64,000 nucleotides of DNA from Rhodospirillales bacterium (GTDB lineage: Bacteria > Pseudomonadota > Alphaproteobacteria > Bin95): NCBI GenBank assembly GCA_038143065.1, contig JAYQLI010000035.1, forward strand, positions 768,001 through 832,000, given 5' to 3'. This document shows, piece after piece, positions 24,517-55,185 of this stretch. The notes under the pieces are model-generated. The model worked only from the letters and a program-made list of their open reading frames with translations, did not search any database and was not told the DNA's origin. Positions within the stretch are counted from its first letter, which is position 1; each line of letters begins with the position of its first letter. The position numbers and the translations under genes are program-made.

Positions 24517-25223
24517 TAGTTGAGAAGTAACTGATCAAACAGTAGTTGAGGATTTTTAAACCTAATTTTAGTAAAACACTTTAGTTATGCATTTGGACCC
24601 ATCCCAAAAATAAAAAAGGCAACGGACACTCCGCACACGTTGGAACTTTTTTTGTCATAATGTGTCGGGGCGAGATCCAATGAAGAAAAAGTCGTATCAG
24701 AGGGTTAATTTTTTATCTTTTTCAAGTTTTTTCATACACCGCATGAGTCTTACTTCACTTATATCAGATGGATTGACACAGAGAATCCTATTATACTCAG
24801 AACGGTATAGTTATGTCCGCACCGCAAAGGCCCAAAGCCAGGTAATTTGTGGCGCACGCTTAAGCATTCAAAGCAACTTGAACAGCGTTAACCGCTTCAG
24901 AACCAAATTTCGCCACTAGACCTTTAACGCTTGGAAAACACCAGCAAACGCGCTACAACATTTCTGACCTACAGCTGTCGTACAAATCCCTCAGAGCTTG
25001 TCCCAATTGGTAATGATTACCTAAAAACTCCCAACAGGCGAACTTGATAAAGATTGATTAAGAAAAGTGAAACCAAACAATACACAAAGGGCCGAGTTGT
25101 GTTTCAGCTATAGAAGGCTTGTCAGCGAACAGCAAAAATAAGCCTATCGAAATTCGGTTGGCATGCAACCAGGATTGGAATGAATATGTTCAAACGCAGT
25201 GTCGTGAAGGTCAAATAATACTT

Positions 25224-25300
25224 GAGGCTGCGTAAGACGGGGTTTTGGATAACCCCTACCTCAGACTTCGGTAGCCCTAACTGAAAGGAGGCTAATCTTT
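25224..25300 (+). mobile_element. Possible relic insertion-sequence left end (IS256-like), no transposase
   Basis: GAGGCTGCGTAAGACGGGGTTTTGG...CGGTAGCCCTAACTGAAAGGAGG resembles recalled alphaproteobacterial IS256 left ends; strong SD with no convincing ORF after it. Confidence 0.3.
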
Positions 25301-25546
25301 CGCTGCCATTATGCCCTCAGATCGGCACTTAACTCCTTGTATTATCTCTTTGCAGAAGCGCGACGTCCCAACTCTAATATTTTTTGGAGCAGCAGATTAC
25401 ACTATTGTAATCCCTAATATACACCAAAAATTATAGACTTTTTCTATTCACACTATGGAAAACACTAAATATAAACCCAATTACGATGGTAAAGTAATAA
25501 TTCATATACATGTTATTTTTTTGACTATATACCATTAACTTACTAC

Positions 25547-28060
25547 TTATTTACTGCTTTTCCCAAATTCGACACCATATAGTTTTCTCTTACATCCTTA
25601 ACTGCAGATAGTTTGCGGCACCATTTTGTGAATTGTGGATAGCAAGATCTCTTAAATATCTAGGCTTTATCCCCCTAGTCTTCATAACCAGTTAACTTAA
25701 CAAATCCACCACCATACTCTTCCTTCTTCTTAAAAGCAGCAATTCCCAAGCGTACATCTGAAAGCGAAACAGGACCCCAGATCCAATACTGATAAATCTT
25801 TGCTTGTAAGCCCAATTTCAGCATTCAAAACTTTAACATTACTGCCTTTGATATGACTATTTTTTCTTCTTTGCGCCATACCCCTCTGTCACCAACCTGT
25901 TTTATCGAAACATTTTCTAGGAAATGCTTCACTTCCAGAAAATCTAAACGTCATTGACATTTTCAAAGACACTTCTTCTAATAGAACCGTTAGAAAAGTC
26001 GCTATCATTATGCGTCGCTATAAACATTTTTAAATGTTGAATTGCTTACAGTAAATGTTGACCTGAATGTGTTCAAAGTCTTCCGCTTTATTGGTAACAA
26101 ATGAGCAGTTCTCCAGCTCCACTTTTGTTTCGTAAAAAGTGACACTTGCAGTCAAGCTTGAATATTCAGGGTTTGGTGCACTTAACTGATGGAAGTTCAC
26201 GTTTCTAAAATATTACCAAAATTTTTACCCGAAATGTAACACCTCCACCAGAGAAATTTGATGATTGTAGTGATATGGGTTGATTTTGTACCAATAAATG
26301 AAATGGTGATCTGCTTATAATTGATGCGTGCCATTGATCAGGTTCACAACTAAACCTGCATTTCCAACACCACAAAACCCCTCAGGGATGAATAAATCTT
26401 TATCTAACTCGATATATGATGAAGAAAAAGTAATTCGTTTAAACTCCTCATCAACCAAAAAGCGTTGATCTCGCTTCAGCCTGTTCAGTGATGAACCCCA
26501 AAATTGAGGCAAATAATTTCCGTCGCTGTCAGAGATAGAAAAAATGGGCAATGTTCGTATTTTGCGGTTTCCCTTCACTCCCAGCGACACGGTAATCAAT
26601 GCTAAGATCAAGCTCGTGATCTCCTGTTCTAAACCTAGTCTCAAACATAGAAGTCGACCCTGGGGGAAGCATCTGCCACCAAAAATAGGCTCTTGGCGAG
26701 AATCATAGTTTGTTCCAACAAGCTCGATTGGCATGATCGACCAATTTTTGATTGTCATTTAACCTGCCCTCCATCAATTTGTTTACTTAATCCCAATAAA
26801 TGCATCTTACTATTAATAAAATTTTAATCTGCGCCTGACGCTGATATAAAACTCTTTAGGAAAATAGAATGGGTACTGCTTTAAATAATATACGCTCTTG
26901 ATGCTCAAACTGGTCGGATATTTCCTGAAAAACTCATCAAGATATTCTAAGTTACTTACACGGACAAGGCTTTCAACAAACCTCTTGTTAAATTATCATT
27001 CGTTAGAAGTTTCTTAAATAGAGGCAAATCTCTGCTCCCTCTAATATTTCCTTACTCAAGAAAATTCTGATTGAGGGGGACCATCTGAAACTCTTAAAGA
27101 GTTGTATTCTTGTAATCGGCTCAACAAGGTTAGAAACTGGGTTAAGGTATAGAAACGTGTTTCATTATTCAACCGCATGCCGGCTATCCATTAACTCTAA
27201 AAATTGCCAGATGCGATGCAAATTTCTTCACATCTAAAATATTCTCAATATCCAGGATACCGTCATTTTTCATTAAATCATGAAACGCAACCTCGATTAA
27301 TCTTGCCGTCGCCTCAGCAGGAGTTTTGTTGTATTTATTTATTTTCATTAAAAATTCCTAACATCACCGTCATTATTGACATTAAATATTATGCCTTCCT
27401 CTGTGCCCATTTCTTGCTCGATAAGCTCTTTCCAAAATGCTCCTCCAGCGCATAAATACCCCAACTCTCCCCGTTTACCTTGAGACTTACAAAAAAATAT
27501 TTAAGAGCTATCAGTCCTTCCCGTCTTTCCAGTTCATGGCCTACCCATTCCACCAAATTATGGCGTGCCTTTGGCGGGAAGTAGTTTGAATTCCGACATT
27601 CCAAGTATTTTTGATCTCTTCCTTACATTAACCTTAAACGCCCTTTTCTTGGCGTTACCAATCATGTCAAGATTCAGGCCAGTTGGAGAAATCTTACTTT
27701 GTAATTCTTACCATTAACCAACAGCTTGGCAGGAACTGAAATTTCTGTTCTTCCTACTAATTTGACCTTTATTCAGCGCAGCTTCTAGCTGCATTGAGTA
27801 ACCATATCTTCAAAATCTATATTATTTCAAATTATGCGTATCAACGCCAAAACTGGATACATAGTTTCTAAAAACCTTCAGTTTTTTGTTTTCGTGGCGT
27901 CGTAAATCACTTTGCGCCGACGCGGCAGTTTGGTTGCGCTGAAGATTGGCACCCAGTAAAATGCAGAAAAAGCCAAAACCCGCCAAGAAAAGACATAGAA
28001 AAAACCCAATCACGGTCTGTTTTGGAACAGATATCTCTACAAATTTTTAAAAAATTTCTC
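25547..28060 (-). CDS. CotH kinase-family protein with N-terminal membrane anchor and C-terminal beta-helix-like region (multiply frameshifted)
   Basis: N-terminal hydrophobic stretch IGFFLCLFLAGFGFFCILLG; HNLVEWVGHEL..REGLIALKYFFVSLKVNGESWGIYALEEHFGK (CotH G-x-Y-x-x-E-E motif); C-terminal SVTFYETKVELENC-type repeats. Confidence 0.65.
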
Positions 28061-28096
28061 CAGTATATTCTTACTCGGCAAAACTACCTTCATTTG

Positions 28097-28782
28097 CTAC
28101 ATTACCTTTCTCGTATCCAGGAAACGCACCTCAAGCGTAGGATCAAAATCAAGCAAACTATTTTGAAGATCGGTCAAGTGTGAGCTGCTAATAATGCTAG
28201 CAGTGAAAGAAATTTCGAAGACTCTGGCGTACTATCCAACCTCTTTAAGTCAGCAGATTCAGAATAACGAGAGAGAATTTCTGATTATCTGCTTCGGCTG
28301 CACCCGATCTGACCAGGCTTATTTATGGTTACAAACATTACATTTGAATCATGCGGATCACTAAACATTTGTTTGCGAAAAAATTAATGCCGACAACATA
28401 AACACAAAGCCAATTGACGTGATAATTATTTGGTTAGCGCCGTAGCCAACACCAACCATTATGCAAACAAACAAAATACCACCTCTGGTTCTTTTATCGC
28501 GGATCGAAAACGAACAATTGATAAAGCACCGACTAGGCCAAGTGATAACGCCAAAGATGACTTGACAATTGTTATAATCACCATTGTAGCCAAAGACTAA
28601 TGGAACGAAAATTTTGCCAAAAAGGCCCGATCAGAGAGCGATAAACCATATTTTTTGTAAATTTGTTGCAACAAAATAGCTGCAATAGATGTTAAAATTA
28701 AACCGATTAGAAATTCCAGAACTGAAACAGGTGTATTAGTAACAGCTAAGAACTTATTCATTAATTCATTGGTGACTTCCAT
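28097..28782 (-). CDS. DUF4956 family membrane protein (frameshifted)
   Basis: Signature IITIVKSSLALSLGLVGALSIVRFRSAIK read at 28495-28580, followed by GVGYGANQ TM segments. Confidence 0.85.
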
Positions 28783-28858
28783 TTAATTACCCTTTTCAGT
28801 TCTTAACTAATAATAACGCCTAGGTATCAGTAAAAAATATGAACAATATAAGCTATTC

Positions 28859-29536
28859 TTAGTTGCTACTCCAATTTCGAAGATTATCAATGCCAAAGAC
28901 ATACTTTGAACTTTTTGTAACTCGACTTCTTTAAAGCTCTGAGAAATGCTTCAGCTTTCGAAAAAGCCTCTGGCGAATTTAATTTCAACAATAACCGAAC
29001 GCGAACGGAACGGTGACGGGTGACAGCCGCAGAGGATTGATGTCATAAAATTTAAGTTGGTATCGACCGTTAATCTGAATTCTGCATCCCTATTCAAGAA
29101 GTACTGCCTATCATAGGAATTAACTAACGTCGGCTCGAGAAGACCAACATCAACAAAATTCTTACCAAATTTTTCAACTACTTCTCTATTTTTGAAATTT
29201 ATTATATTTTTAGTTGTAATTTTTTTAGAAAAATCAAATAACACGGGCTCTATCTCATTTATCTTTCCAGCCCTAGCATTCCAGATTTATCTTAATCTCC
29301 AGGATGGGAGAATTAGAAATGTCTTTTAATCCGCCGTACCATCTTAATCTGACTTTTTCTGACTTTTTCACCCTCAACATTATCAGCAAACGAAGATAGA
29401 TCAAAAGTATCAAAATATATATTGTTAATTTGCCGCTTATGATGAATTGATCGAAGTGCATCAGGTGTGTTTTCACCCTGTATAAAACCTCATGAATATC
29501 AGTGTCATCTATAAAAATTTTAAGTTCATATCTCAT
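28859..29536 (-). CDS. VTC-domain (polyphosphate polymerase / CYTH-like tunnel) protein (frameshifted)
   Basis: MRYELK (ExK), NNIYFDT, KVRLRWYG, ILEIK, YDRQYF..RLTVDTNL, VIVEIKF, SKYVFG. Confidence 0.85.
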
Positions 29537-29765
29537 ATTAGTGCCCCTACCTCATCGATGAATTCAACAAAAATCCATCGAACACTCCGGGATTCATAGA
29601 GTTAATCAGGATCTATGGACTTACAAAAATATCAATCCAGTTAGCAAACACCATTACAATTTCATTTAGGCAAAATACTTTTTATGAACTAGTGAGGCAC
29701 CAAAACCTGTTTCTAATCATATGCTGTCAGCGGACAGACTTTTTCATACTTAAGGTATTTTTGTT

Positions 29766-30770
29766 TTAACTATAGTTTAAACGCCCCTTTTGATGCCAGC
29801 GCCATGCGTCTGTTATGATTTTTTTTAAATCTGGATCGATGTGCAGACCAACCCAGTTCATTAAATGCGCGCATTGAGCCAGACACGAGCCTACTACAGT
29901 CCCCAGGCTGCCTTCTCAGCCACATTCACTGCTAGCTTGCGACCAGTAACACTCGATATGTTTTCTGTTACCTCTTTTTAACAGAGAACCCAGCTCCTGT
30001 CCCAAGATTAAATACGCCACATGTATTACCATTTTCCAACCATTTAAGACCCAAAATATGAGCATCAACTAAGTCACATACATGCACATAATCACGAATA
30101 CATGTTCCATCAGGGGTAATCATAGTCATCACCAAAAATTGTAAACTCGCCGCCTTTACCATCAACTGCAGCAAGTAAGTAGGGATTGGTGGAGTTTCTA
30201 TTGATGATATTCACAATTTCGAGCTTTCAGGGTCTGCCCCGCTACGATTGAAATACCTAAATATAACATAATTAAGATTAAATGATGCTCTAGTTCGCGA
30301 TAATGTTTTCGACAGCGAGCTTTGACGCTTCCCATAAGCATTTGTTGGATTTTGCAAACTGTTTTCGTCCAACAACACGTTGTCCTGCTCACCATACGTT
30401 GCACAAGTCGAAGAAAAGATAAAATTCCTTACACTCGTGTTCAACAGCTGACTGAATCAAATTCAATGAGCCCAAAACATTGTTTTTCCAATATTTGTCG
30501 GGAACGTGCATACTCTCATGAACTTGGCTAAGCGCAAAGTGCATGACCGCTACAGGCAAATATTTTTTAAATACATCATCTATTCGCTTTTTTTGTTTCG
30601 AAGATTCTACTAATTCGAAAGGGTCAGGAATTTCGCGGCCTCTTCCTTGCCGGTATATAAATTATCAACGGTGTCGCTTGGAACATAGCCTGCTATCTTC
30701 AAGCTCTTGCACGCATGTGAACCAATGCCATGCTGTACCTACCAGGTAACCAAGACTACTTTGCTGACTA
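29766..30770 (-). CDS. galE: UDP-glucose 4-epimerase (multiply frameshifted)
   Basis: [48 protein letters not shown]. Confidence 0.9.
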
Positions 30771-30789
30771 TACTATCCCGCTCCAATTT

Positions 30790-31927
30790 TCGAGCTTGTG
30801 AATTTAATTTTTAACGCAAACGTTGCGGCCGCAAAAAGTCCAACAAGCACAAATAAAGCTGCTGGGAAGCCAAGCGCTGGGGTGCGCTCATACATAAACC
30901 GAACTAAAGCGCGAGAAGATAAAAGTTTCAGTGATATGCTTCACACCACTAACAAGGGCCACAACAGACCACACAAGGCCGCCCAAGAAACTTACACTGT
31001 AACAAGTGCATCGCCATCAGCCAATCTAATGATTTCGTAATTTGCGGACGCAATACTACTGAAAATCCCGTCATACAACAATTGACGTTCAATAAACAAA
31101 GGATAAACCAAAAATATCCAAATCAAAAATGAATTCAGAAAGTATAAATTCCGTTTATCCCAAGACTGTTGCATCGGTGGCATTTCATACTCACGAAGGG
31201 ATAAATATACGACGGAAATCAGTCCATAGTACAAGAATAGCAATAAGAAATACCGTCGCCCCGCTCCGATCTTTAGAAATGATAAATTATAACAAAGGTT
31301 TAAGCGTGATATAAGTCATTGAAAAGAATAAAATGCCAGCAACTAAAAATATTAAGAACCAAAATCTCTTTAGTTCCGTGGGCATGCAGATAGACGTACA
31401 AAGGTAAAAACAAAAATGCTATGTGCGAAGGCTCATTGTAAACGCCGATACTCTTATCCCTGAGCAAGGGCGTACTGAATTTACATATGAAAAGTTTGCA
31501 AAGGCCTGGTATACTTAGCTCAAAACAACCGCAACTACAATTGAGAAAACGGATGCAAAAAAGAGCCCATTTTAATGATTTTAAATCGATTTTCCGAGAA
31601 ATAATAATCGCTACAACAACTAATAATAATTGCTTAAAATAATAAAAATTATTGTTGAAAGTCACAGAATTATCAAAATTTGAAAAAAATTGTCAGTAAT
31701 AAAAAAGAAATTACTAATATAAATGCAATATCTTGCACCTTCCATTTTGTGTTTGAATAATTATAAAAAAGTAGACCAATTAAAGGTAATTGCGACTTTC
31801 CTGCAGATAAAAATGCCGGGAATAAAAAAAATGAATAAATTGTTCTTTTAAAGAAATGTTTCACGATAATACTTTTCAATCTCGATAGCATCCTATTGGT
31901 GAATATTTATTATTTTTTGTTATCCAT
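30790..31927 (-). CDS. Multi-pass membrane protein, probable Wzy/O-antigen polymerase-like (fragmented)
   Basis: Hydrophobic ORF fragments with a GVYNEPSH motif inside the glycan cluster. Confidence 0.5.
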
Positions 31928-31929
31928 TT

Positions 31930-32888
31930 TAATATTATCAATATAAAAATCCTCCCCAGTTTGAAACTAGGAATTGTTTTCCAAAAACTGATCTTACGAC
32001 ATCAGATGCAGCATTTTTTTCATCAACAAAAATGGAATATTGTATTTTAATGCAAGCTGCAGAATCAAAGGGTCACAGTCTATTTGCCTAGCTGGATACA
32101 CAATCGCCGATGCCAAAGAAATAATGCTATGAACTTGCTCCTGCTGCAGCCATCCCAGATATGTTTCTCTAATGGAGCTTTCCCAGAAGCTCCAACATAC
32201 TTTATGATACTTATCGGTAATTAATTTTTAAATCTGTCATGCCCTTTATCTTTAGATGATGACTACGGCAAAACTGAAAGGAGTTTTTTTAACTCTAAGT
32301 GCATTATAGATGAATGGTTTGCCCTCCCCCAAACATAAAGATTTGCAATACTAGTGGATGTACAGCCAAGATGACGCTCAATTAATTTCAGTGATTTAAT
32401 GGGAGAGAGTTCGAATTTTAATTCTCGGAACCGGCAAACAATCCTCATACATAACGTAAATATCGCGTGGATGTATTTCTTCAAGGATAACCGCAGTCTC
32501 CCTTAAGCAATTAAATGATGCGCCTTTAAGTTCACATATGCTTTGCTGAACAAAGTTAAATCTGGCTTTTGAAGGACATATAGTAAAGATAATCGTGTAC
32601 ATAACAAACACAAATCTTTAGGACATATAAATGATAAAAATAAAACTATAGGAAAAAAACGAAAACGTATGAACTATAAATTTTCTGCGCGAAAATAAAA
32701 TATTTAAATATTCGTATATTATTATAGATAATACTCAATATTAACCTAAACGCATTTTCTCCAATCACTGAAACAGTGGACACAGAGTGCCCAAAACCAA
32801 TAAGGACATTTACTTCTTCTTTAGCGACGTGTGTAGCACCGCCATTATCACCGCTAGATAATCAAAAATGACACAAATTTTTGTTCAT
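31930..32888 (-). CDS. Glycosyltransferase, GT4-like (fragmented)
   Basis: N-terminal SGDNGGATHVAKE...GHSV; C-terminal DCDPLILQLALKYNIP resembling the GT4 nucleotide-sugar-binding segment. Confidence 0.5.
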
Positions 32889-32915
32889 GTTTTTTTCGAT
32901 AATGCGTTATAGATT

Positions 32916-33960
32916 TTATTCAAGCGCAGTCTTGACAAATCTACCACTTTGATGAAGCAGGTCGATTCCTATTTTGTTTTCGATTACTTCTTCAATGAAT
33001 ACTCTGTGGGGCTCAATATGCAAATACTGGCACAGCGCGCTGAGCTTACCTCCTCCTGGGGTATAATCCACTCCGACTGTTTTTTTGTCTAAAAGCAACC
33101 CAAGATAAATCCGTGATATCTAGCAGCAATTACAATCTCAGAAGACTTTATATTTTGGATGACATTATACATTGATTATCATAAACTGTCGATGCCAAGT
33201 GTGCTGCAAATTTCCTTTTACTGCTTTACTATCAGGCTTCCAATCTAATTCGTGTAGAGAAGAAAGTTAGTTTATAGCGGGATTTTCGGACGCTAAAAAC
33301 CTCGAGACACCTAAAAAAATGTATTGTTATATTGAACTAAGCTTTATAGCCTCCCGGAACATAAGAACGTGGCAAGAATCGCATGTTAACTGCAATACTT
33401 TTATGAATATGATCTGCACACACCCATTTCTGCAGTTCTCTCGCATAGAAAACTTGCATAGAGCTATTTTATATTGTTTTTGACTTTGCTTGAATCCAAA
33501 TTAAAAGTCGGCCGTAAAACGATGAAATCTTGCAGAGTGAGCAAAAACATTTACAAAAAGTGGCAAATCTTAATTTTCACCGGCCCTATTCCACCCCAGA
33601 TTATTCGCTACAAACTCACTCACCCTGGCCATCAAATTCTAAAAAAACCAAAACAGCATTCTCGGATCGTCCATTAGTGGTCCACCACCAAAAATAAGCT
33701 TATCTCCCTTTTTAAAAACAAGAGTTGTTGTTCTGATACTACTTCAACATATTTTTCTATTAAAATAGCATCAGCCTCAAAGGCTAATGCTATTAATTCC
33801 TGCAATGTAGCTTTTGTGTAACTCTCGGATTAAATGGAACAAATTAAAATAGGTCGACTTTTTGCGAATTAGCTTTTTAAGAATACCAAGTAATATTAAC
33901 TTATCGCCTAAAGTCTCTGTTCCATACCAGCCATAAATTAAAATACAGTTATTTTTCTTT
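32916..33960 (-). CDS. Polysaccharide pyruvyltransferase family protein (fragmented)
   Basis: YGWYGTETLGDKLIL N-terminal motif; IVIAARYHG and DYTPGGGKL near the C-terminus. Confidence 0.7.
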
Positions 33961-35149
33961 ACTCTCGATAACGACCAACAGCACCACTAAACTTGCTACA
34001 AAGTATAATCAGCTACTTAAACTTGTTTATATTCGCAAGCATGCAAAACTTACGATCTAACAAAAGCTTAAATACGCAAATAGTAGAAAAAAATACAAAA
34101 TTATATGTTTTAATTTAGATCCAGGCACAAATATAAAATAAACGCTAAGCATGGCATAAACAATCTTAAATTTCCAACATAGACAATTTATTTTTATTAT
34201 AAAAGCGTCCTTATGGGTATTCATGAAACACAAATGGCGTAGTAAAAGAGGTACCTGAAAACCAATACAACAAACGAATCAATTTCTGGCTGCAGCAGCA
34301 AAAATACAATCAGATGTTCAAATAGTAAACACACTCCAAGTCCACGAGCAACCAGAAAAAAACTAAGGACAGCGCTTAGCACTCGCTAAGGTAGAACACT
34401 TCCATTTTGGTTTGTAAACTTAACATGAAATGGATGGTGAGCTCACATTTAAAAGTGACGATATAAAACATATTTAAACTATTAAGGCGAGAAACAGCCC
34501 CTCACTATTACTTAAGCTTAAAATAGACTTATCAATTATATACCATAATTGTAATCATTCCTCCTTACTAAAATGTACACCAGATAATATGGATTACACG
34601 TTTATTATTTGAAAACTACGTTTCTTTTATAAAACAGCTTTATTTACTCTTTGTAGAGTATAAATAGATAATAAGGAAGATAATGAATAATACAATTACA
34701 ACAATAAAGCGTTTCAGGCTAATAAAGCTACCGCCACCACTAGTCCGACAGCTCTTTCAGAAGATCTAAAATGAAGAAGTTAAGGCATTAACACAACACA
34801 GACATTGCTTGGTGACGTATTTCCACAAAGGCCCAAAGAGGTATTGTTGCGAATTGCAAAAGGTTCAGGTTGAGAAAAAAAAAGCTATCAATAAACAGCG
34901 CTTTATTAACATCGCTGAAACACACCAAAAATGAAAAATATAACAATCATAGTAAAAGACACCTGGGGAGCTTTTGGTGATGGCTCCAATTAAATGGGTA
35001 TTTAAAAGTCGCGAAACAAGGTCAACTGTTAACTCAACACCAAATAGTGTATATACTGTGGAAAAGATCATTTGGATTTGATTTTACAATAAAGTCATGA
35101 CTAAACCAATTAATAAAGTTAATACAATAATTAATTGAAAAAACTTCAT
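33960..35149 (-). CDS. Multi-pass membrane protein of the glycan cluster (polymerase or flippase not resolved; fragmented)
   Basis: ATG 35149 MKFFQLIIVLTLLIGLV; hydrophobic AT-rich fragments. Confidence 0.35.
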
Positions 35150-36204
35150 ATTTTTTGCTTTATTTTTTTATTTGTTGTACAAAATCAGCAGGATCAACTT
35201 CAGAGACATGAGACATGTGATCGTGAAACTTAATTTATTAATCGTTTTACTTCTAACTGTGACGGCTTAGACGACATCTTTTCATTACCATGAATCATCA
35301 AGAAACCGTTACCAATCTTTTTGCATAGAAATGAGCAAACACAAATGTCGCGATTAGGATCAACCATTGTACCGTCGTTTTTCTTTTACACAAATTGAAC
35401 AGGTTGCTTTCAGTTTGGATATAGTCGAGCATCATGCGATAATATGCTGCCCCTTAAATCCATAGTTTGTTAACTTTCTCTCAAGGAGTTGTCGAACTTC
35501 TGAAAGACGGAATTTAGATGAATGAGCCCCATTTGACTTGAGCTAGTTCTTTATTAAAGTCCTATCACCTCAACGTGGTGATAGTTATCGGCAGTTACGT
35601 TTTATTGCGTACTCATTTTAATATTTGTTTTATAAAGGCTGTTTAGGCTTGGTAATAGTGCAGGCTAAATCAACTATGGTTCCAACATCAGCGATATTGC
35701 CTGTGGCAATCAAGCGTCCTTTCTACTTTTCGAAAAACACCGGGTACACCCGTGTGTGGTTATGTACATCACCAACGCCGTCAAGCGACTTACGGTGATG
35801 CGCAACCCAAACTGTTGTAGGTTTCGAGGCAATAATCTCAGGCATTAACCTGATAATCCGCTCAGAATTAAATCCATTAGTAGTGATGCCTATAACCGTC
35901 AATTAGGCAAAACATTGAGCTGCAGTCTTTATAACGCCTGGAAGGTCTTGCCTCAGAAAAGGTTCTCCACCGGTTATTCCAAAATTCTTAATTTCTGAGA
36001 GAAAAGTATTCCTTAGAGCCTTTTCTAACTCCTGAATACTGAAGTCATCGCTGTGATACCTCCATATATCACACATTTCACATCGTGAATTGCATCGATT
36101 GGATACAGAGAGGTTCATAAACGACGGTTTTCGGACATCAAACCAACTCCATGTACTAAAAGGTCGGTGCCATATTTACGAATGTTTTTCAGATTTATTT
36201 TCAT
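35150..36204 (-). CDS. Radical SAM protein (fragmented)
   Basis: SNRCNSRCEMC (CxxxCxxC), ITGGEPFLR, ITTNG, SLDG. Confidence 0.85.
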
Positions 36205-37247
36205 ATTTCTTGATATAGCCTTACTAATTTTTACATGATTAATTGGATCAAACATATTATTTAGTAATGACTGATCTATATTTGTACTACAGCAATTAAA
36301 TTCCTTAACCTTGGCTATGAACTCGGCGCCAGTTGAAAAAACGGCTAAATTGCTTGTTACGGTTTCAAGATCGCTCACTCCAGAAACATTAGTTGAAAAG
36401 ACTATCTTATTCCTCGAAAGGGCTTCAACCATTACCGTCGATAAACCTTCATAGCTAGATGGGATTATCAATGCGTCTATTTCTTCATCAAGTATTTCGA
36501 CATCGGAGACAAAACCTCTTAGCTCAATATTATTCCTGAAATGTCAGGAATCTCCCACATCGGGAACACTGATGCATCAAAGCCAAATAACAGGATTTTT
36601 ATCCCATGCCGCCCCAAAGAGACCGCCAGATCCTGTAAAAACCTTATCTGATTCTTTTGTTTAGAAAGTCTTCCAACTATTCCGAAATACGCCAAACGTT
36701 GGCTTGGTTTCGAGGGTAATTTGAGAGTTTTTCAGTCTGATTGGATTGTAAATCAATGAACATTTATTTGGGCCATTCAGCTGCTTAGTTCGTTTGAAAT
36801 CACGACTACATGATTATAAGAGAGAAATAGTAATTAGGCGCTCGACGAGAAACCCATATTTAAGTGAGAAAATAACGTTCATTGTGAACTGTTCGTATAA
36901 ACTTTGTGGATTTTCTTTTAATTCTAAATCTTAAAAATACTGTCAAGATGTCAGGTACTTCACCATGAGTATGTATTATGTCTGGTGTGAATTTTTTCGA
37001 TTTCATCAACTAAATATTTAAATTGTTCTGATATTTTCTTGAAATTCTTAATTCTCAGTCTTGGAAAATCGCAATATCTAACCCTATTTTCCAGCGCATA
37101 TTGCTTCTCAAGAAATGGATCAGCATTGCCTCGTGCTGCTATTAACCTCGTATCTACGTGTTGCCTTACCAAACCACTCGCTGCGTTCAGGGCCACAAGT
37201 TCAGAACCACCTAACTTTAACTCGTTGGTAAAAACTAAAACCCTCAT
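36200..37247 (-). CDS. Glycosyltransferase family 4 (fragmented)
   Basis: MRVLVFTNELKLGGSE; IPSSYEGLSTVMVEALS. Confidence 0.8.
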
Positions 37248-38387
37248 TTATCAACAAATTTTTCTAGGAATGCTTTGAACTGGTCGGAAAGTGGGTCTAC
37301 ATCATGACACCGTAAGTAGTAAGCTCTTGCATTTCCCCTCATCCTAGTACGCAATTCTTGGTTGCTAAAAACCCTTTCCATTGCTGCCACGAGTTCAGAT
37401 ACAGATGATGGTTGGACTACTAGCCCAGATCTTGACGCATTAGCAATTAATGGAACTCCAGACTTTTTTAGATTAGTAGTAATTACTGGTGTCCCACATG
37501 CATATGCTTCGATTTGAGATAAACCATACATTTCTTGGTTTAGTGGTTGAAGGCACTGAGCACAGATGCTAGCTCCAGCAATTTTTTGAAGCCTTTCATA
37601 AATTGAAGAGAGAGCTCTCAAAAATATAACTGTGATTCGTCGATTCCAAACTTTTTTGTTAAGTGCAAAATAGTTCTTATAGTTCACCCCAGACCCAATA
37701 ATGATAAGCTCAACATTTTGGATGTTTCTTACCAGAAACTCAGCCAAGAGGCAGAAATGGCTTACTTCAAAGCCTTTATATCCAACAAAACAGCCCGTAC
37801 ACACGAAGTAGGGCTTTACATCCTCGTTCATAGATCCTTCAGAATACCTTAGTATTTCAGATGACTGGGCTTTAAGTTCTGATGTGGCGAATAAATCTAT
37901 GAGGCAAAAACTCTTACTTTGCAAAAAACTTGGTACTGTTTCGATATGAGCGACCGTTGGCACGAGAATACAATCGAATCTTGAATAAAATATTCTCGTG
38001 AAAATATTATAAAAATGGTTTGAATTAATCCCTTATGAGATGTACTGGTGCATGCCAATATAGGCAGAACTTTTGATCGCTTTTTAAGCAGCGATAAAAT
38101 CAATGGGAATGGATTAGGAACATGAATAATTATGCATCTATATTTAGAAATATTTTTACTCACTGATTTTAATAAACTAAAGCTAAATGGAATATTGCGG
38201 ATTAATCGGTATTTAAATTTATAAACAGATAACCTAGGTTCATTTTCTTCTAGGTTGCTATGGACTACTGTGTCTAAGTGCCAGTCCTTAATATTATCAA
38301 AAACTTCAATATTACCAAGCGTTGCTGTTTCAATGCCCCCCCAATCAGGAGGAAAATATTTCCCAATTTGCAACAGGTTTTATTCAC
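37244..38387 (-). CDS. Glycosyltransferase family 4 (frameshifted)
   Basis: QIGKYFPPDWGGIE, HVPNP, EMYGLSQIEAYACGTPVI. Confidence 0.85.
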
Positions 38388-39269
38388 TATTTATCCCTCG
38401 TGTCGAAATTACCTGACACGAATGGAATACTATACAATTTATTAAATTTTTCACCGTTAAATTGTACAACCTTACGATAATCAGAAGTCTCCCTTTTTCA
38501 ACACTATCTTTTACCGATGGCAAAAAGTTAAAATTCATTACGCTATCCACATGAACTCGTTCCCCAGAAAAAACATAGAGAACAAGTTTATTATTTTCCG
38601 AAGGTATATTTGACAAAAAGTCTGTTTTGTCTTTTGCTCAGTCTTAAGTGATTGCACAATTTGCGCCCCACAGAAGAAGCGTGGGGAAACCGATTGTCAA
38701 AAATTACAAACTCACCCATTTCCGTCTTTATTTCAGGAAGTAAAAAATCGGGCAAAATCTTTTTTGCGATTTTTTAAAAATGTATTCTGCAACTGTAAAA
38801 CCAAAAGGTAATCGAACTAAGGAACGCGTCAGCTTAAATAACAGGGTTTCCGCAGATCCCACCGCAAACCCGCATTGAAAGTATCTTGAAAATAAAACCC
38901 GATGTTTGTCCACGAAGGTGTTTTATTTTTAAACGCTATACTGCGGGATGTAAGTTCGTTAGCTCCGTCGATGTGTAATCCAAACGACGTTTGAAGCCCT
39001 TTTTTGCGTAAATGAGTTAAATTGAGTTTGCAAATTTGGGTAAAATACTGGATGGATATACAGGCATGTTAAAGGCCTCTTTCAATTTTTCATCGTTTAA
39101 AATGCGCTGAATGTCAGGATCTGCTACCAGATCAGAAACTTGACGTACCCTTTGATTTTTTACTCTTCTCACAGAGCTTTGCTTTTATTTGTAAAACTTC
39201 TTCTACCGATAATAATGATCTAATTTTAACGTAACCGTCTCTATAAAGAAGCTTTTGATAGTAATTCAA
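38380..39269 (-). CDS. Phytanoyl-CoA dioxygenase (PhyH)-like 2OG-Fe(II) oxygenase (fragmented)
   Basis: RDGYVKIRSLLSVEEV N-terminus, LHIDG (HxD), GEFVIFDNRFPHASS distal His motif. Confidence 0.65.
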
Positions 39270-40040
39270 ATTTAATACCTCAGAGTATTCCTAAAAAACG
39301 TTTTCTCGGAAATTGTTTGCAATTAGGTCCAGGTCTTGCCAGCGTAAGTTGGATGACTTTTTGGGCTTTGCAAACCATAGATTTCCATAAATTTGATTCC
39401 TTTGATCAATTAAATGATCTTCATTTACTCTCACGGCATGTAGGGTATCAGAGCTTGGTTTGAATATTGATATACTATTGTTGAGTGTTAGTTTTTTTTA
39501 CGGTATTAGCCCATTCCCAAGGGAACCCAGCACGGATCAACATCGTTATATTCCCAAAATTTTCGATAAATTGGTATTGCGGCTTAAATTCACAGAAATG
39601 TGTATGCATGCTCATGTTCGTGACATCATGAGTATTGGTGTAAATGTTAACCATCATCTGTTAAAACCACGAGACGTGTCTGGGTGGGGAGATATTTCAT
39701 AGCCTTTTAGAATTTTTTTGTATACCACCCTCATAAGTTTATTGATTCAGTTATTAAAAACTTCTCAAGCTAATGCATCTAACCATCTACTACCCTCGAA
39801 AAATGCCATTAAATCAATCAGAAATGGGTCCTCTATTTTTTTCAAGCGATATGTTATTCCATTCAATCGTAATATCTCTTCCATACCCTTCAATCTTGAG
39901 CGTTTATATTTCCCACCAGAGAAAAACTTAAATATTCCGTTTCATCAGTGATGGAACCAGGAAATGGAATAGCCTCATACCCACACTTACGTAAAGTTTT
40001 CAGCAAATTCTCGTTCGTATCCTGTTGATTTAATTTAATA
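39270..40040 (-). CDS. Probable class I SAM-dependent methyltransferase (fragmented)
   Basis: Fragments LLKTLRKCGYEA, ISPPRHV and HDVTNMSMHTHFCEF, consistent with glycan-cluster methyltransferases. Confidence 0.4.
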
Positions 40041-40191
40041 TGTTTCTTTTCTGAATAGAATTAAAATGTTCAATAGAAAGAAATTCTCAATAACCACATG
40101 ATTAAATGGTTTTGGGTCTATTTTTGCTTTCGAAATTTTATTCCAAAGGTAGTCAAACTGTTCCATTACATAGTCCCTATTTTAACTTCTT

Positions 40192-41629
40192 TTATATTGA
40201 TCTTGATATCGTATAATATCGTCTTCGCCAAAATATGTACCAATCTGTACTTCTATCAAAACCATTGGAAGTGCATCGGCGTTCCTCCATCCGATGTATT
40301 GCACCTAATGGTACGTAAACTGACTACCCCGTTTCAACTAACTTTACGCGTTCGTCGACGGTCACCTTTGCTACGCCCTCAACAACAATCCAATGTTCCG
40401 AACGAAACTTATGGCTCTGCAGGCTGAGGGCTGCGCCCGGATTCACAAAGATTCGTTTTACCTGAAACCCATCAGACAGGACTAAGCTCTCGAACCAACT
40501 GAGGGCGATGTTCTTTTGAAATATTTTCTTTCGCTTGCAAAGTACCTTTTGCCTTGAGCAGCTCCACCACTTTTTTAACATCTTGGGCACGAATCTGTAT
40601 TACGCAACAAAAGAGGACTGCATCAGCTTGCATAAGTGATCGCCATGATATTGTCCAACCCCTAGACCAACGACTTGTTGGGATTAACTCGGATCGAAGC
40701 AAACTATTGGTGCATTCGATGGCGTGTGCATTTCGTTAGTCACATTGCCTAATTGATCTGGATTACTTTCTGTCCATACGGCATCCCAACCACCAAGATC
40801 AGACCACTTTGAGGCGTAAGGCACAGAAACTAAGTTCTGCACCTTCTCATAATGGCATAATCGATACTGATATCCTCAAGCTTGGACCAAGGATCTGGGG
40901 CAAGGCGCAAAAAACCCAAGTCTGAAGAGACATGATCCAATGCACGCGATACAAGATTTAAAGTTTCTGGCGCGTGGGTACCAAAGAGCTTCAATCATAT
41001 CCTGCGGACAGTTAGAAATATCCCTGAGTTCCAAAGATAGGAACCATCTTCGAGCATCTGATTGGCATCCTGCAGATTAGGCTTTCTACAAAAGCTTTAA
41101 AGGTCAGAAGTGCCGTATTTATCTATGGGGTCTTTAGATAGCTCTAAATAACCATACCCCGTCCTCTGGATGCGTAGGCTTAATTCCAAATGTGACTATT
41201 TTTTGGTTCTGGAGCGTATGATAAGCCTGTTTTTATTGCCTTATGGAACTCATCTCTGTTCGGAATCAAATGATCTGAAGGGGCGACTAACAATATGGCC
41301 CCTTCATCTTTTGAATGTGCAAATATGCTAGCGGCTAAAATCGCGGGTGCAGTATTCTTTGCCTCAGGCTCGATAAGGATCGTTCCAGGATCAATCCCCG
41401 GCCAGCATCTGCTCGCCGACAATGAAACGGAAGTTTGAATTGGTGAGAGTGATATGCGGGGCAAACTCAATAACCCCTGAGGAACTTAGGCGCATGGCAG
41501 ACTGCCAACTGAAACAATGAATGTTTCCCCATTAGCTCCGCAAACTGTTTAGGATATGACTTGCGCGACAGCGGCCACAACCCTACTTCCTGATCCACCA
41601 GCTAACAGGACAGGATAAATTTTTGGCAT
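40192..41629 (-). CDS. manC: Mannose-1-phosphate guanylyltransferase / mannose-6-phosphate isomerase (fragmented)
   Basis: LWPLSRKSYPKQF, ILIEPEAKNTAPAI, APSDH, WSDLGGW, LSLQSHKFRSEHWIVVEG. Confidence 0.92.
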
Positions 41630-41897
41630 TCTAAGACCCCATGCGCTTTTTATATCTGCTACTAGATGCACTCATGAAACCATTAAACTACCCGCAATCA
41701 AAACTGTTTTTAGAAATCTTGAACTATTTGAACCAACACTCGACTATTCAAAAAATAAGATACTACAAGCGCCATCACGAAAACATGCAATTTTCGATTA
41801 ATGATAAATTCCTGTACTAAACCTCTCGTCATCCTAAGTTCGTGTTTCGACAAAAGCTCAAACAACGCATAGCCATAACGCTCCATTATCAGCAAAT

Positions 41898-43271
41898 CTA
41901 AACCTGCTCCCCACCAATCAACTGCACAATCGTCATAATGTAAAAATCGAGCGTGTTCACTTTACCCTTACATTCAATATTCAAGCGCACCAACGGTTCC
42001 GTATTCGAGTGTCGCAAATTAAACCTCAATCCTCAAATACTAAACTCACGCCGTCAGTCCTATCGTGAAAGGGCATCCGCGCTGTAGGCAATTAAAACGT
42101 TCTCAATCGCTTTAGTAGCATCAGCAACTTTAAAATTCATTTCACCCGAGCTTGGGAAGGCGACGAATCGATCTTTCATCAAATTACCCAGTGAGCGTCC
42201 CGAGCGACACACAAACTCGGCCATTAGCAACCACGGAATCATGCCACTATCGCAATAAGGCAAAATCCTGGAAATAATGGTGAGCAGACATCTCGCCGCC
42301 GTAAACAGCATCATGCGAGCGCATTGTTTGCTTTATAAAGGCATGGCCCGTTTTGGATTGCACTGCAATACCACCTTTATGTGCAACAATATCTCGAATA
42401 TTTCAAATCACTCTTGGATCATGAACGATCTTTGCTCTGGTCTTTTCTCCAGAAACATAGATGCTAAAGAGGCCCATGACATATTCTCCTGGTACAAATT
42501 GTCCAGATTCGTCAAAAGAAAAAGCAGCGATCGAAGTCACCATCAAATGCCACGCCAAAGTCTGCTTCATTAGCCCTAACTACTTCAGAAGTTGCAGAAT
42601 GGTTTTTCGGGTAGAAGTGGGTTGGGATCCCATTTGGGAATGTCGCATCAGGTATATGATGCACCCGGATTAATTCAATTGCGCAAGCGTCCTCAATCTC
42701 TCTGCAATTGCATCAAAAGTTGGACCCGCCGCTCCGTTCCCAGAATTAACTACGAGCCTCAAGGGTCCGCCATGTTCTAGTATCCACGAATGAAAGAACC
42801 CTATCCACATAGGCCTTTCGCGCTTTCTCTGAACAGTTAAACTCTTTACCAGCCTCACCAACCACCATCCATTCTTGAGAACTTGCTAGTGCCTTGATCA
42901 CTTGAAAATCACCCGCGTCATCCAGAGGACGCGACTGAGACTTTACTATTTTCATGCCATTATAATTTGACGGATTGTGAGATGCAGTAACTTCAATACC
43001 TGCACAAGCGCCAAACTCAGTCACGGCCCAATACATCTCCTCGGTACCCGCCATGCCAATATTTAAAACATCTGCGCCCGCATCCATAACGCCACGCGCC
43101 GCCGCCTCCGCAAAGGCTGGACTTGTCTCACGCGCATCAAAACCAATAACAACAGACCCCGCTCTTAAATGTTGAGCCACTGCTCGACCAATTCGGTAGG
43201 AAATGCCCTCATCGATACTCACCAATTTCACCCCGGATGTCGTACATCTTGAAGCAGGTTAAGTCACTCAC
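41898..43271 (-). CDS. manB: Phosphomannomutase (CpsG/ManB) (fragmented)
   Basis: [38 protein letters not shown]. Confidence 0.92.
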
Positions 43272-43620
43272 CCCTGATGCTCTCTGGTGCTGGTGTCGCC
43301 TTAACGGCAAGCATTATGGCTTTCTCAAGTGCTTTAATTTCAGCCGTTTGCACCTCGAACTCTTCACACTTACGTTCGATTAACATGTGCGCGGGGCGTA
43401 ACCTGTTTCGAAACTCTCCTGGGATCAAGAGGTTACCATGTTGCTCTTTTCGTGGATATTTGTCTGTATTTTCAGACTTCACAAAGCCTTTTTCGACAAA
43501 GTCAGTGAGCCCATAACTGGTTGCACTAATTGCCCCCGCCCTCGTCATAAGCCAACTGGCGCGCGGACATCTTTGATTTCTGAGAGATTAAGCTCATAAC
43601 TTTCAAATAGGCCTCCGCAT
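43264..43620 (-). pseudogene. Degenerate MarR-family EPS-associated transcriptional regulator
   Basis: EKGFVKSEN...RKEQHGNLLIP...IERKCEEFE..AEIKALE aligns with the EPS-associated MarR pattern; many non-conservative changes and a broken N-terminus. Confidence 0.55.
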
Positions 43621-43869
43621 GCTGTTCTTTGTACTAAATAGCTAAAATATCAATTTAGAAAAGCGACCGCACCAGACTTCCAATAACGAGAAGACAAAGG
43701 CAAGGAACGTACCGATAAACGGAAGGATTATTAAGGGACGTGGGATAATCAACATTTGTCTGACATCAATAACAAAATAGAAATACACACGAAATATTTA
43801 GTTAATGGAATCATATGCAAGCAAGTAAACGGCATGTACTATCATTGACCTATTCCATGGATAACAGAA

Positions 43870-44331
43870 GTGATACACTGATACTCGATACAGTTTAAGA
43901 ACAGTAGCTATCCTTTGACAGAACGCAACTTGCATAGGCAAGGATGCCTATACAGCGTATCACCCGCAGGACGGCTCTCACTTTGTGACTGACCTTTAAC
44001 CCCTATTTCCCAAACAAATATTGGTAATCTTGAAATCTGACTTGGCTGCATAGCGCTTCCTCGAAGTACGATCGGGGTATGAAACCCTGTAAGCTTTGAG
44101 GGCAAACTAAAGCCGCTGTCACTTCAACTTATTCCTGGTTTGATTCTTCGATACGATGTACCTGATACACTAACACTACCCAAAAGTCTGAGCGAGGGCA
44201 GTAATATGAAAATGCCTGCCGGACCTTTTGCGAACTTCATAGCAACAGCAGGCACTGCAAATGATCAAGTAATTAATTTGGGTAATGATGAAGTTCATAG
44301 AACAGACTACGCACATAAAAGTCATAGCTAA
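43870..44331 (+). pseudogene. RfaH/NusG-family antiterminator pseudogene
   Basis: QFKNS...ERNLHRQG, FVTDL*PLFP, DLAA*R, STIGV*NPVSFEGKLKPL, KOW-like GPFANFIA; in-frame TAA, TAG and TGA plus indels. Confidence 0.75.
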
Positions 44332-44506
44332 GCGACTAAAACATACTTATCGGCTTACCTTCTAAGGCTCAGCGTTTGCTATTTGTTAAGAACGCTTCGG
44401 CCGTCCAGACGCATTACTTACATTGGTGTCTTGAGATTATATGAGGGGCGCGCAAGCGATCGAACAAACAACAAATGCATAGGGTTGCGAACGACAAGCC
44501 AAACCG

Positions 44507-45326
44507 ATCAAAATGCTTTCTGAGATCAGCAACGTACTTAATGGCATCCAAATAGCCCTCCACGCTCCCACAATCGAACCGGTGACCATTCAGTGTAACT
44601 GCTTCTACTGCATTATTGGACGCCTGCTTGTTAATTGCATCTGCAAGTTGAATTTCACCACCAGCTCCTACAGGCTGATTACAAAAAGAATATTAAAGAT
44701 GTCTGGAGTTAATACATAGCGACCGATGCTAGCTAGATTTGATGGAGCTTTGTCCGCATCTGGTTTTTCCACAAGACCTGCTACTGCACCTGGCTTACCG
44801 TTTTGGACTACAACCCCATACTTACTAATATCAGGACCATTAACTTCCATCGCTGAGTTGAGACTTACCGGATGCCGCAAACGAACGCACAAGATCAGCT
44901 GTAGCACCGCCCCCTCACACGTGAGAAAATCATCTGCGAGCAATACAGCAAAGGGAACACTACCTACGGCTCGTTCCGCACAGAGAACGGCATGGCCGAG
45001 ACCAAGTTGCTCAGGTTGACGAACAAAAATGCATTCTACTCCTGAGGCAAAATGTTCCTAACCATGTCGGCCTCTTGATCTTTGCCTTTTGCCCGTAGAG
45101 CCATCTCAAGTTCTTGGTTACTGTCAAAATGGTCTTCAATGGCGCGCTTATTGCGGCCTGTCACGAAAATTAGTGTATCAATGCCCGCCGCAATCGCCTC
45201 CTCTCTGCATATTGAATCAGAGGCTTGTCGACTATAGGAAGTAGTTCTTTCGGGTGCTTTTGTGGCAGGGAGAAACCTTGTGCCAAAACCAGCGACGGGA
45301 AAAACTGCTTTACGGATCTTGGTCAT
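44507..45326 (-). CDS. galU: UTP--glucose-1-phosphate uridylyltransferase (frameshifted)
   Basis: [48 protein letters not shown]. Confidence 0.93.
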
Positions 45327-45934
45327 AGGAAAATACGTCTAACTGATAACGATTGAGCTGAAGATAGTAGCACAAATGTCCATACACTAAAAAAATAAGC
45401 TACTATCTACCTAAACACCATACGTTTTTCAGATTGCTTCAGACAACTATCCTATTTTCGATCATAATGCATCGATAACAATAATCCTAGCATTTCTAAT
45501 TCTTAATATTAGAGCTATGCGATAGGGGCTTCCTTACTACGTAAAGAAGCAGCTCTAAATTTGAGAATAAAAAGTAGTTTTTGCTGAATGAACCAACTCT
45601 TTTGAAGACAACGTTTGAGGTCCGTTGGTTTGTTCCCTTTTTTGGATTTCGATCTGAACGTAAATAAACCTTAAGAACTTTGCATAAGTAAAATATCTGG
45701 AAATTTTCTACTTTTGGGTTGGTGAACTTTCCATTTTTCAAAACAAATCAATTTCTCACAAGAACCTCATCACTCTGGATAATGTTTTTACCCAACTTTG
45801 CAAATGAAGGCTACATTCACCAATGTTGCCTTAGATTTTCAAAATCATTATAAAGTTTTTAGCTTTGACGCTGATAAAAAACACTAAGTGTTTGGATCTA
45901 ATATAATTAATTTATACAGATTACGGCAAGTAAA

Positions 45935-49146: not shown

Positions 49147-49413
49147 ACTCAGTTCCTAATGCTATTTTAATAGACACAGACACGACACAACTGCATCAGC
49201 CTGTTTCTGACCATTAATTTTTTATTTGATAATAAAGTCTCATTGGATACGAGAACTGCTCATGCTGGATTATTGATTTTCCAATTAACAGAAGTCTTAA
49301 AAAACCTAACCTTAGATCAAACATAACTCTGAATGTTGGTTGTTTTTCTAAAAGGGGCGCTTTCCGGGTAATTAGGGGACGGGCAAAGCACCCTATAAGC
49401 TAATTAACTAAAA

Positions 49414-55182: not shown

Positions 55183-55185
55183 TTT

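Follow-up and report, generated by a model that had tools for sequence, protein, structure and literature searches.

A VTC, DUF4956 and CotH-fold gene cassette in a glycan island of a Rhodospirillales bacterium as a tentative envelope phosphotransfer module

The gene cassette considered here lies on contig JAYQLI010000035.1 of the Rhodospirillales bacterium assembly GCA_038143065.1 (Alphaproteobacteria; Bin95), within a stretch of 64,000 nucleotides (contig positions 768,001 to 832,000, forward strand) that we call the window and to which all coordinates refer. It consists of three genes encoding a stand-alone VTC-family protein, a DUF4956 membrane protein and a CotH-fold protein, which follow a galE-like gene inside a low-GC island:

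28859..29536, minus strand: stand-alone VTC-family triphosphate tunnel protein, predicted to be cytoplasmic and Vtc4-like, about 225 amino acids when intact (Pfam PF09359; 5 frame breaks)
28097..28782, minus strand: DUF4956 inner-membrane protein, about 228 amino acids, MgtC/SapB-like (Pfam PF16316; 3 frame breaks)
25547..28093, minus strand: CotH-fold protein, about 850 amino acids (profile of intact relatives; at least 18 frame breaks)
29766..30750 (5' end approximate), minus strand: galE-like NAD-dependent epimerase, the upstream neighbour, frameshifted (Pfam Epimerase on three fragments; stop at about 29766)
24550..49300 (borders approximate), no strand: low-GC glycan island containing the cassette (GC of 35-45% per 2 kb, genome median 47%)

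Along the minus strand the order is galE-like, VTC, DUF4956, CotH-like, as in the initial annotation made from the sequence alone, with intergenic gaps of about 230, 76 and 3 bases, and all of the VTC, DUF4956 and CotH motifs that it quoted were found in minus-strand frames. Its family names also held up in profile searches. Run on the host's own genome, Pfam VTC and Pfam DUF4956 both exceeded their cut-offs at this place (34.8 bits against 23 and 32.5 bits against 30.6, respectively), whereas Pfam CotH gave no match over its cut-off at the window gene, a miss that we attribute to the broken reading frame; a profile built from 60 intact CotH-like relatives did match the gene (E 2e-18 and 4e-11). 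None of the three genes is a continuous open reading frame (ORF), the longest ORF within 25547-29536 being 147 amino acids. Single window fragments, which are short and partly out of frame, found no relatives when used as protein-search queries, and a promoter and terminator scan gave no excess over shuffles (13 against 18.8 and 7 against 5.1).

Frameshift-aware alignment of the window DNA to the profiles of intact relatives gave 136, 190 and 250 bits for the VTC, DUF4956 and CotH-like genes, respectively, and at most 19 bits for shuffled DNA (10, 10 and 3 shuffles). The breaks on these paths, of which those in the CotH-like gene were counted across profile positions 109-830 of 874, add up to at least 26 in 4 kb together with 2 stops, and conserved profile positions are kept in 26 of 28, 24 of 26 and 57 of 84 cases, respectively. 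From our point of view two explanations can be imagined, namely that (i) the breaks are errors of assembly or sequencing and the cassette is intact in the organism; or (ii) the island is dying and this copy, as distinct from the family, has decayed into a set of pseudogenes. Decay would fit the sheer number of breaks, their lack of clear enrichment in homopolymer runs, where 11 of 26 fall and 8.2 are expected, the fact that no sequencing run is listed for the region, and the N-lobe of the window's CotH-like protein, which departs from the family at profile positions 133-135, 141 and 147-148, be it by error or by real divergence. It sits poorly, however, with the presence of just 2 stops and with the conserved positions that VTC and DUF4956 mostly keep. 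Moreover, over about 30 kb of the window (22000-53000) the genes are frame-broken, among them core genes beyond the borders of the low-GC island, with 2-10% of the stretch under stop-free frames of at least 200 amino acids against a genome median of 73%. Similar stretches occur on many contigs and amount to 6.6% of the 426 10-kb bins of the assembly, many of them at normal GC, so that any 'split gene' finding in 22000-53000 is suspect. A neighbour that we take, from our own reading of its sequence, to be ammonium-transporter-like is likewise broken in the window (4 breaks, no stop) though intact in 5 of 5 same-genus genomes, and its divergence (0.63-0.68 at third positions, 0.13-0.16 at first and second positions) is the pattern of a gene under selection. 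On balance, we consider it very probable that the breaks are assembly or sequencing errors and that the cassette is intact in the organism, and quite unlikely that this copy has decayed.

The relatives used throughout are the best 80 of at least 236 confirmed loci, drawn from at least 601 pattern matches, and left 63 VTC, 69 DUF4956 and 60 CotH-like sequences after length and duplicate filters. Within the fetched flanks, VTC is present in 67 of the 80 loci, a CotH-like match in 76 and all three genes in 65, with several of the 15 incomplete loci stopping at a contig edge. Five gene orders occur, that of the window in L012, L017, L023 and L049. In an even sample of 400 genomes of the same class, VTC was found over the cut-off in five (with one further weak match full of stops), the CotH/beta-helix profile matched the same five, and DUF4956 matched eight, six of them over the cut-off; seven of these eight DUF4956 loci were fetched, and five of them carry all three genes together. 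Among 14 control genomes, the same three carry VTC and DUF4956, and all three also carry CotH. The co-occurrence postulated in the initial annotation is thus borne out, with exceptions: DUF4956 stands alone, with no partner nearby, in 2 of the 7 fetched same-class loci; of five genomes without VTC near the DUF4956 locus, four have VTC elsewhere; and of the seven separate VTC loci in question, three lie beside a DUF4956 and four have no partner within 1.5 kb. Across 43 triads, the pairwise distances within one protein family are correlated with those within the other two (Spearman 0.42-0.56), which shared ancestry alone can produce. The linkage is hence obligate-looking, not absolute.

A similar picture holds for the glycan genes. 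At least two of them occur in 20 of 48 loci of at least 15 kb, compared with 4 of 206 20-kb bins of the host's own genome, a control that is tilted in favour of a glycan link because the profiles were built from these very loci and because the host genome is frame-broken. By our profiles, at most one glycan gene is found in the other 28 long loci, and none or one in 4 of 5 same-class loci. Glycan genes near the cassette are therefore enriched, not required: the proposed nearness to wza/wzy loci stands as a tendency, and the stricter notion that the cassette is always beside wza/wzy was rejected on the same 20 of 48 count.

Several features of individual loci should be mentioned in this context. 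Tandem or duplicated CotH/beta-helix genes lie within Wzx/Wzy loci in L008, L014, L027, L044 and L049, the last of which holds three cassettes or part-cassettes inside 11 kb. Near the cassette, 11 of the 48 long loci (L091:4167-11152, L005, L013, L057, L073 and others) encode a calcineurin-like phosphoesterase that is exported or, in some cases, a soluble pyrophosphatase, and it is possible that such a phosphoesterase acts as an eraser of a phosphate mark; in L091 a TPR protein additionally sits between DUF4956 and CotH. In five loci (L012:827-1255, L023, L003, L019 and L025), two of which have the window's gene order, VTC and DUF4956 have between them or next to them a gene for an exported protein of 140 amino acids with no Pfam or NCBIfam match. 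The archaeal locus L067 (Methanosarcinales) bears a His-type cassette in the order DUF4956-CotH-VTC. Intact copies are found, for instance, in the loci L005 and L046 of cultured flavobacteria (Flagellimonas and Algibacter). No relatives were found of a DUF4956 fragment in viral contigs, of VTC in plasmids or of the CotH-like protein in phages.

Turning to the individual proteins, the VTC family profile matched Vtc2, Vtc3 and Vtc4 chains and nothing else in the PDB up to E 10, and PF09359 is the sole Pfam or NCBIfam domain in three scanned relatives. The relatives measure 205-260 amino acids and have a hydrophobic segment in 0 of 63 cases; longer, fused forms were absent from 8000 scored candidates, which is weak evidence. 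Counting along the profile alignment, we located the equivalents of Vtc4 R196, K200, R264, R266, K281, E426, K428 and K458, each of which is conserved as the Vtc4 residue in 62-63 of 63 sequences (62 for the K458-equivalent lysine); all eight are present on the window path. R264, R266 and E426 form an inactivating triple of Vtc4 (PMC9911596) and K458 is catalytic (PMC4641920). Hydrolytic tunnel enzymes require a second metal held by three glutamates (PMC4641920). In the VTC family, the motifs read R-x-E-x-K and E-x-K, with two of the three site-2 positions being basic (Arg and Lys) and with an invariant glutamate (63 of 63) where Vtc4 has T198, i.e., one site-2-type glutamate is kept. The placement of the N-terminal ExE motif in this comparison is presumed from residue spacing and from the usual form of the motif. 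With Vtc4-like basic residues at two of the three site-2 positions, the sequence favours a polymerase- or transferase-type protein rather than a hydrolase, in line with the earlier assignment.

For DUF4956, a model of the L023 protein (predicted local distance difference test, pLDDT, 85.9) has five N-terminal helices followed by an ACT-like domain, with fold matches to ACT-type domains (Z 8-10) and to the C-terminal domain of MgtC (Z 8.4, root mean square deviation (rmsd) 3.5, 86 aligned residues). At E<=1, the MgtC profile matches 56 of the 69 members weakly, the best with E 5e-4 and none reaching the cut-off; the NCBIfam MgtC models matched 2 of 2 scanned members with 20-27 bits against a cut-off of 214, and Pfam MgtC gave 11.9 bits against 31.4. 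No Vtc1 chain was among the fold matches of the model, a result that excludes nothing, as the ACT domain filled the match lists and the membrane part was in consequence barely probed. Following the positive-inside rule, loops 43-58 and 90-100 and the ACT domain are predicted to be cytoplasmic, and the invariant basic residues fall into the predicted cytoplasmic loops, with one invariant lysine in an outer hairpin. No conserved arginine or lysine is found midway through a membrane helix, whereas the yeast VTC channel relies on mid-membrane K24/R31 and K622/R629 (PMC9911596). From the model, DUF4956 looks like MgtC, with five helices and an ACT domain, and not like Vtc1; the initial idea of a VTC-type membrane subunit is not upheld, and a Vtc1 homologue was rejected as being without support. 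It shares with the MgtC/SapB family about five membrane helices and the C-terminal ACT-like domain, but it scores far below the curated cut-offs and has an invariant VKSSLALSLGLVGALS.R.R motif and fixed partners of its own. As its basic residues lie in cytoplasmic loops, DUF4956 could offer an entry that binds anions; a role as channel is putative.

The CotH-fold protein consists of an N-terminal anchor, a kinase fold, a small beta linker domain and a C-terminal right-handed beta-helix. Its profile matches Bacillus cereus CotH (PDB 5JD9) at E 1e-15, and the model of the L017 protein (pLDDT 86.5) superimposes on CotH with Z 27.7 (rmsd 2.8, 313 aligned). The beta-helix of this model has the epimerase AlgG as its top match among many similar folds (Z 27.2, rmsd 2.9, 279 aligned), the best matches being alginate epimerases and lyases, such that a likeness to polysaccharide enzymes is supported. 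Of 60 CotH-like proteins, 57 have a hydrophobic segment near the N-terminus, and in 48 its N-side flank is the more positive one; a hydrophobic anchor segment is also carried by the window frame. Since an N-terminal anchor with a positive N-side flank places the bulk of the protein outward, it is predicted to be an N-anchored, outward-facing type II protein. Both the membrane anchor and the beta-helix, as well as the outward topology, had been anticipated in the initial annotation and are confirmed on intact relatives, the topology as a prediction.

The active site is where the protein deviates from known CotH kinases. In B. subtilis CotH, D228 and D251 are each needed for activity, and the D228Q variant is inactive (bioRxiv 10.1101/469122). 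In the alignment to 5JD9, which together with the spacing of 23 residues defines the equivalents of D228 and D251, the catalytic-loop aspartate pairs with a histidine and the aspartate 23 residues further on with an aspartate. The histidine is found in 57 of 60 aligned sequences and in 144 of the 150 best representatives. When all loci are taken together, 92 of their 103 distinct CotH-like ORFs have it (the others being 8 gaps or truncations and one each of Ser, Asn and Asp), and it is present on the window path. The metal asparagine is kept in 136 of the 150, and the DFG-like position is Asp in 135 and Glu in 9; these are family counts, since in the window itself the metal Asn and the Asp adjoin frame breaks and are unreadable. 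One of the refuting observations named in the initial annotation, a CotH domain that lacks catalytic residues, is thus half borne out: the metal Asn and Asp are kept, and the D228-equivalent is a His across the subfamily, a substitution that the annotation had overlooked. As His replaces the catalytic Asp, the protein, judged by its aligned residues, is not an ordinary CotH kinase. The His is as conserved as the metal ligands, and this speaks for a new catalytic role and against decay; a tightly held His beside kept metal ligands suggests changed chemistry and not a dead site; one could speculate about a phospho-His step. At four conserved basic positions (profile 133, 173, 218 and 325), the sequence alignment shows a non-basic residue in B. 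cereus CotH, and ladders of Asp and Lys in the beta-helix (D720, D723, D725, D742, K791, D792 and K815) are held in 149-150 of 150, above the level of the kinase core. The lamin-tail CotH proteins of verrucomicrobial triads keep the Asp (5 of 6 listed).

At E<=1e-30, the His-type CotH/beta-helix subfamily comprises 6381 clusters at 50% identity, fragments included; an Atlas search returned CotH and unnamed clusters only, and we found no paper on the subfamily in the literature searched, whose coverage leaves out most subscription papers. CotH/beta-helix paralogues without the His loop occur at L005:6632-9256, L007:6621-9266 and L044:14084-16663, and the first two of these loci have an additional, shorter CotH-only gene after DUF4956, an arrangement that points to a division of labour.

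As to the island, 76 fragments were scanned by Pfam, most without a match. Those that matched include the epimerase, GT4 glycosyltransferases, radical SAM, manC-like, PGM/PMM and galU-like NTP transferase fragments as well as Wzc-like GNVR and Wza-like SLBB fragments. No Pel family was named among these 76 fragments, most of which are too short to score, and no pel-specific search was made. When positions 24000-43500 were compared with five same-genus genomes, the left flank alone matched in 5 of 5, and in G007 a cluster for a branched-chain amino-acid ATP-binding cassette (ABC) transporter, by its ORF reading, sits between the same flanking genes. From the match confined to the left flank and the other genes at the site in G007 we infer that the cassette-bearing island is a lateral, strain-variable insert; DUF4956 was not found in 60 relatives, 36 of them of the same family. 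The host genome contains PPK1, so that no second enzyme would be needed for bulk cytoplasmic polyphosphate (polyP), and has no match to CYTH or PPK2.

Smaller elements of the window comprise a radical SAM fragment inside the island (35700-36200, Pfam) and a fragment at 33780-33990, without a hit, that we presume from its motif to resemble the start of a polysaccharide pyruvyl-transferase. Five fragments without a Pfam match between the cassette and the left flank (24900-25450) are possibly an insertion-sequence remnant. Just right of the island, at 53300-55860, lies an imuA/imuB-like pair with an IMS domain by Pfam, in which imuA is presumed from likeness.

The three families have been described together before. 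CotH, a polyphosphate polymerase, DUF4956 and DUF4832 are listed as pel accessory genes (bioRxiv 10.1101/768473), and SIR_1592-1594 of Streptococcus intermedius belong to the same three families, their function being given as unknown and cytoplasmic polyP being proposed (bioRxiv 10.1101/2024.04.20.589940). In the same preprint, SIR_1592 is described as MgtC-like with an ACT domain, in agreement with the L023 model, single-gene knockouts retained Pel production and aggregation, with a small decrease in aggregation for the DUF4956 knockout, and the set was not found outside pel operons. The latter notion was rejected here, as the triad is common outside pel among the relatives' loci and the same-class genomes. 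In two other papers (PMC13454231 and PMC10434189) DUF4956 genes merely appear in expression tables. Bacterial polyP synthesis is credited to PPK, and VTC-type polymerases are called eukaryotic (PMC12526157). Among the papers listed for Cthe_2159, nothing on this operon was found.

Like the cassette studied here, the Gram-positive pel set is contiguous and lies beside polysaccharide genes. In both, a VTC fold in the cytoplasm is combined with a secreted or anchored CotH fold and with a membrane protein that resembles MgtC and bears an ACT domain. The pel set differs in that the present island is of the Wza/Wzc type in a host whose double membrane is deduced from gene content, and in that CotH carries a beta-helix instead of FN3 and a His instead of the catalytic Asp, while SIR_1594 appears to keep the catalytic residues (bioRxiv 10.1101/2024.04.20.589940). 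With the eukaryotic VTC complex (Vtc4/Vtc3/Vtc1; PDB 3G3Q, 8I6V and 7YTJ) the cassette shares the catalytic set, basic residues at two of the three presumed positions of the acidic patch of hydrolases and the genetic tie of a tunnel enzyme to a small membrane protein. Unlike it, the cassette has no SPX domain and no membrane helices in the enzyme, its membrane partner is, by the model, MgtC-like with five helices and has no conserved mid-membrane Lys/Arg ring, a Glu takes the place of Vtc4 T198, and there is a tie to an outer kinase-fold protein. Bacillus spore-coat CotH (PDB 5JD9/5JDA) has the same fold, and its metal Asn/Asp and several N-lobe positions are kept here, whereas the His, the N-terminal anchor, the added 300-residue beta-helix, the extra conserved basic residues and the lack of a sporulation context set the present protein apart. 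By analogy, its closest functional counterpart would be a VTC machine divided into separate parts and joined to an envelope kinase; the cassette is neither the eukaryotic VTC complex nor a canonical CotH kinase. What lies in the window is a His-type, beta-helix variant of a published, functionally unexplained gene set, apparently located outside pel. The observation made initially is thereby confirmed, its interpretation in part.

ATP (adenosine triphosphate) is scarce outside the inner membrane. Our proposal, which we put forward tentatively, is that the cassette forms a three-part envelope phosphotransfer module in which a phosphate polymer is made, a donor is passed outward via DUF4956 and is then used by the altered kinase fold to modify an acceptor at the cell surface, in many cases a glycan. 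In favour of it we count the linkage of the three genes, the Vtc4-type tunnel residues, a PPK1 that already serves the cytoplasm, the predicted outward topology, the conserved His next to kept metal ligands, the extra basic positions of the CotH fold, the invariant basic residues of DUF4956 and the enrichment of glycan genes near the cassette. Judging from its residues, VTC would bind ATP and one metal as Vtc4 does and move gamma-phosphates to a phosphate acceptor, so that polyP or short chains would form on the cytoplasmic side of the membrane. In what would be the weakest step, a DUF4956 oligomer might dock VTC through its basic cytoplasmic loops and the ACT domain, and the donor might cross the membrane as a chain or on a lipid carrier, through an MgtC-like and not a Vtc1 fold. 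Finally, the CotH-fold protein, predicted to face outward, may use the donor at its His-altered site, possibly by way of a phospho-His step, the acceptor being an envelope glycan or some other surface molecule bound by the beta-helix. The fully specified version, i.e. a prokaryotic machine of cytoplasmic polyP, MgtC-like transfer and a polyP-fuelled His kinase fold that phosphorylates surface glycans through a phospho-His relay, we consider rather improbable.

A number of observations weigh against the proposal. Besides the exceptions to linkage, the glycan-poor loci, the tilted glycan control and the divergent N-lobe of the window copy described above, these are the loss of an aspartate that B. 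subtilis CotH needs, the one site-2-type glutamate that VTC retains, the absence of conserved mid-membrane basic residues from DUF4956 and the survival of Pel and aggregation in the S. intermedius knockouts. On export, the His variant and assays of bacterial members, the literature searched, again with most subscription papers outside its coverage, yielded nothing further.

Of the other explanations, it is possible, if doubtful, that exported polyP is itself the product, as a surface polyanion, cation store or glycan counter-ion, with the CotH fold as a non-catalytic or slow partner that binds the chain to capture, cap or measure it and with an acidic beta-helix that binds metal or glycan. The lost catalytic Asp would be explained, as would the beta-helix ladders that are conserved beyond the kinase core and an outer partner that varies, from the Asp-type lamin-tail CotH of the verrucomicrobial loci to the phosphoesterases or pyrophosphatase of the 11 long loci. 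On the other hand, a conservation of at least 90% at each of the His, Asn and Asp positions is easier to reconcile with catalysis than with a dead site, and export as such is putative. We regard it as rather unlikely that the cassette is a trans-membrane signalling system in which CotH/beta-helix acts as the sensor of a glycan or nucleotide, DUF4956 with its MgtC-like fold passes the signal on via the ACT domain and VTC makes cytoplasmic polyP or another phosphorylated signal. The MgtC-like architecture with a regulatory-type ACT domain, the missing basic ring and the cytoplasmic polyP and small modulating knockout effect reported for S. intermedius all speak for signalling, but the host already has PPK1, no DNA-binding regulator is prominent in 34 Pfam-scanned representatives (one histidine kinase family occurs in 4 loci), and the Asp-type, apparently active CotH kinases that partner the same VTC/DUF4956 pair would need a donor outside. 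Lastly, that VTC is another triphosphate tunnel enzyme, either a hydrolase or a transferase to lipid or sugar, within a different envelope chemistry such as a beta-helix epimerase or lyase, is unlikely: near-identical tunnel centres can indeed run different reactions (PMC4641920), one site-2-type Glu is invariant and the top beta-helix matches are alginate epimerases and lyases, but two of the three water-activating glutamates are basic here, the K458-equivalent lysine is nearly universal, Vtc chains are the only PDB matches and a beta-helix fold match shows no function.

Overall, the gene set is already in print, and the window copy, a poor experimental model because its frames are broken, is unusable without re-sequencing; the biology would nonetheless be important if the proposed phosphotransfer module is true. 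As such, bacteria and archaea would possess a second route to polyP, possibly including its export, and a phosphoryl donor for envelope kinases, and a kinase fold running on polyP would be a general answer to how such kinases are fuelled without ATP.

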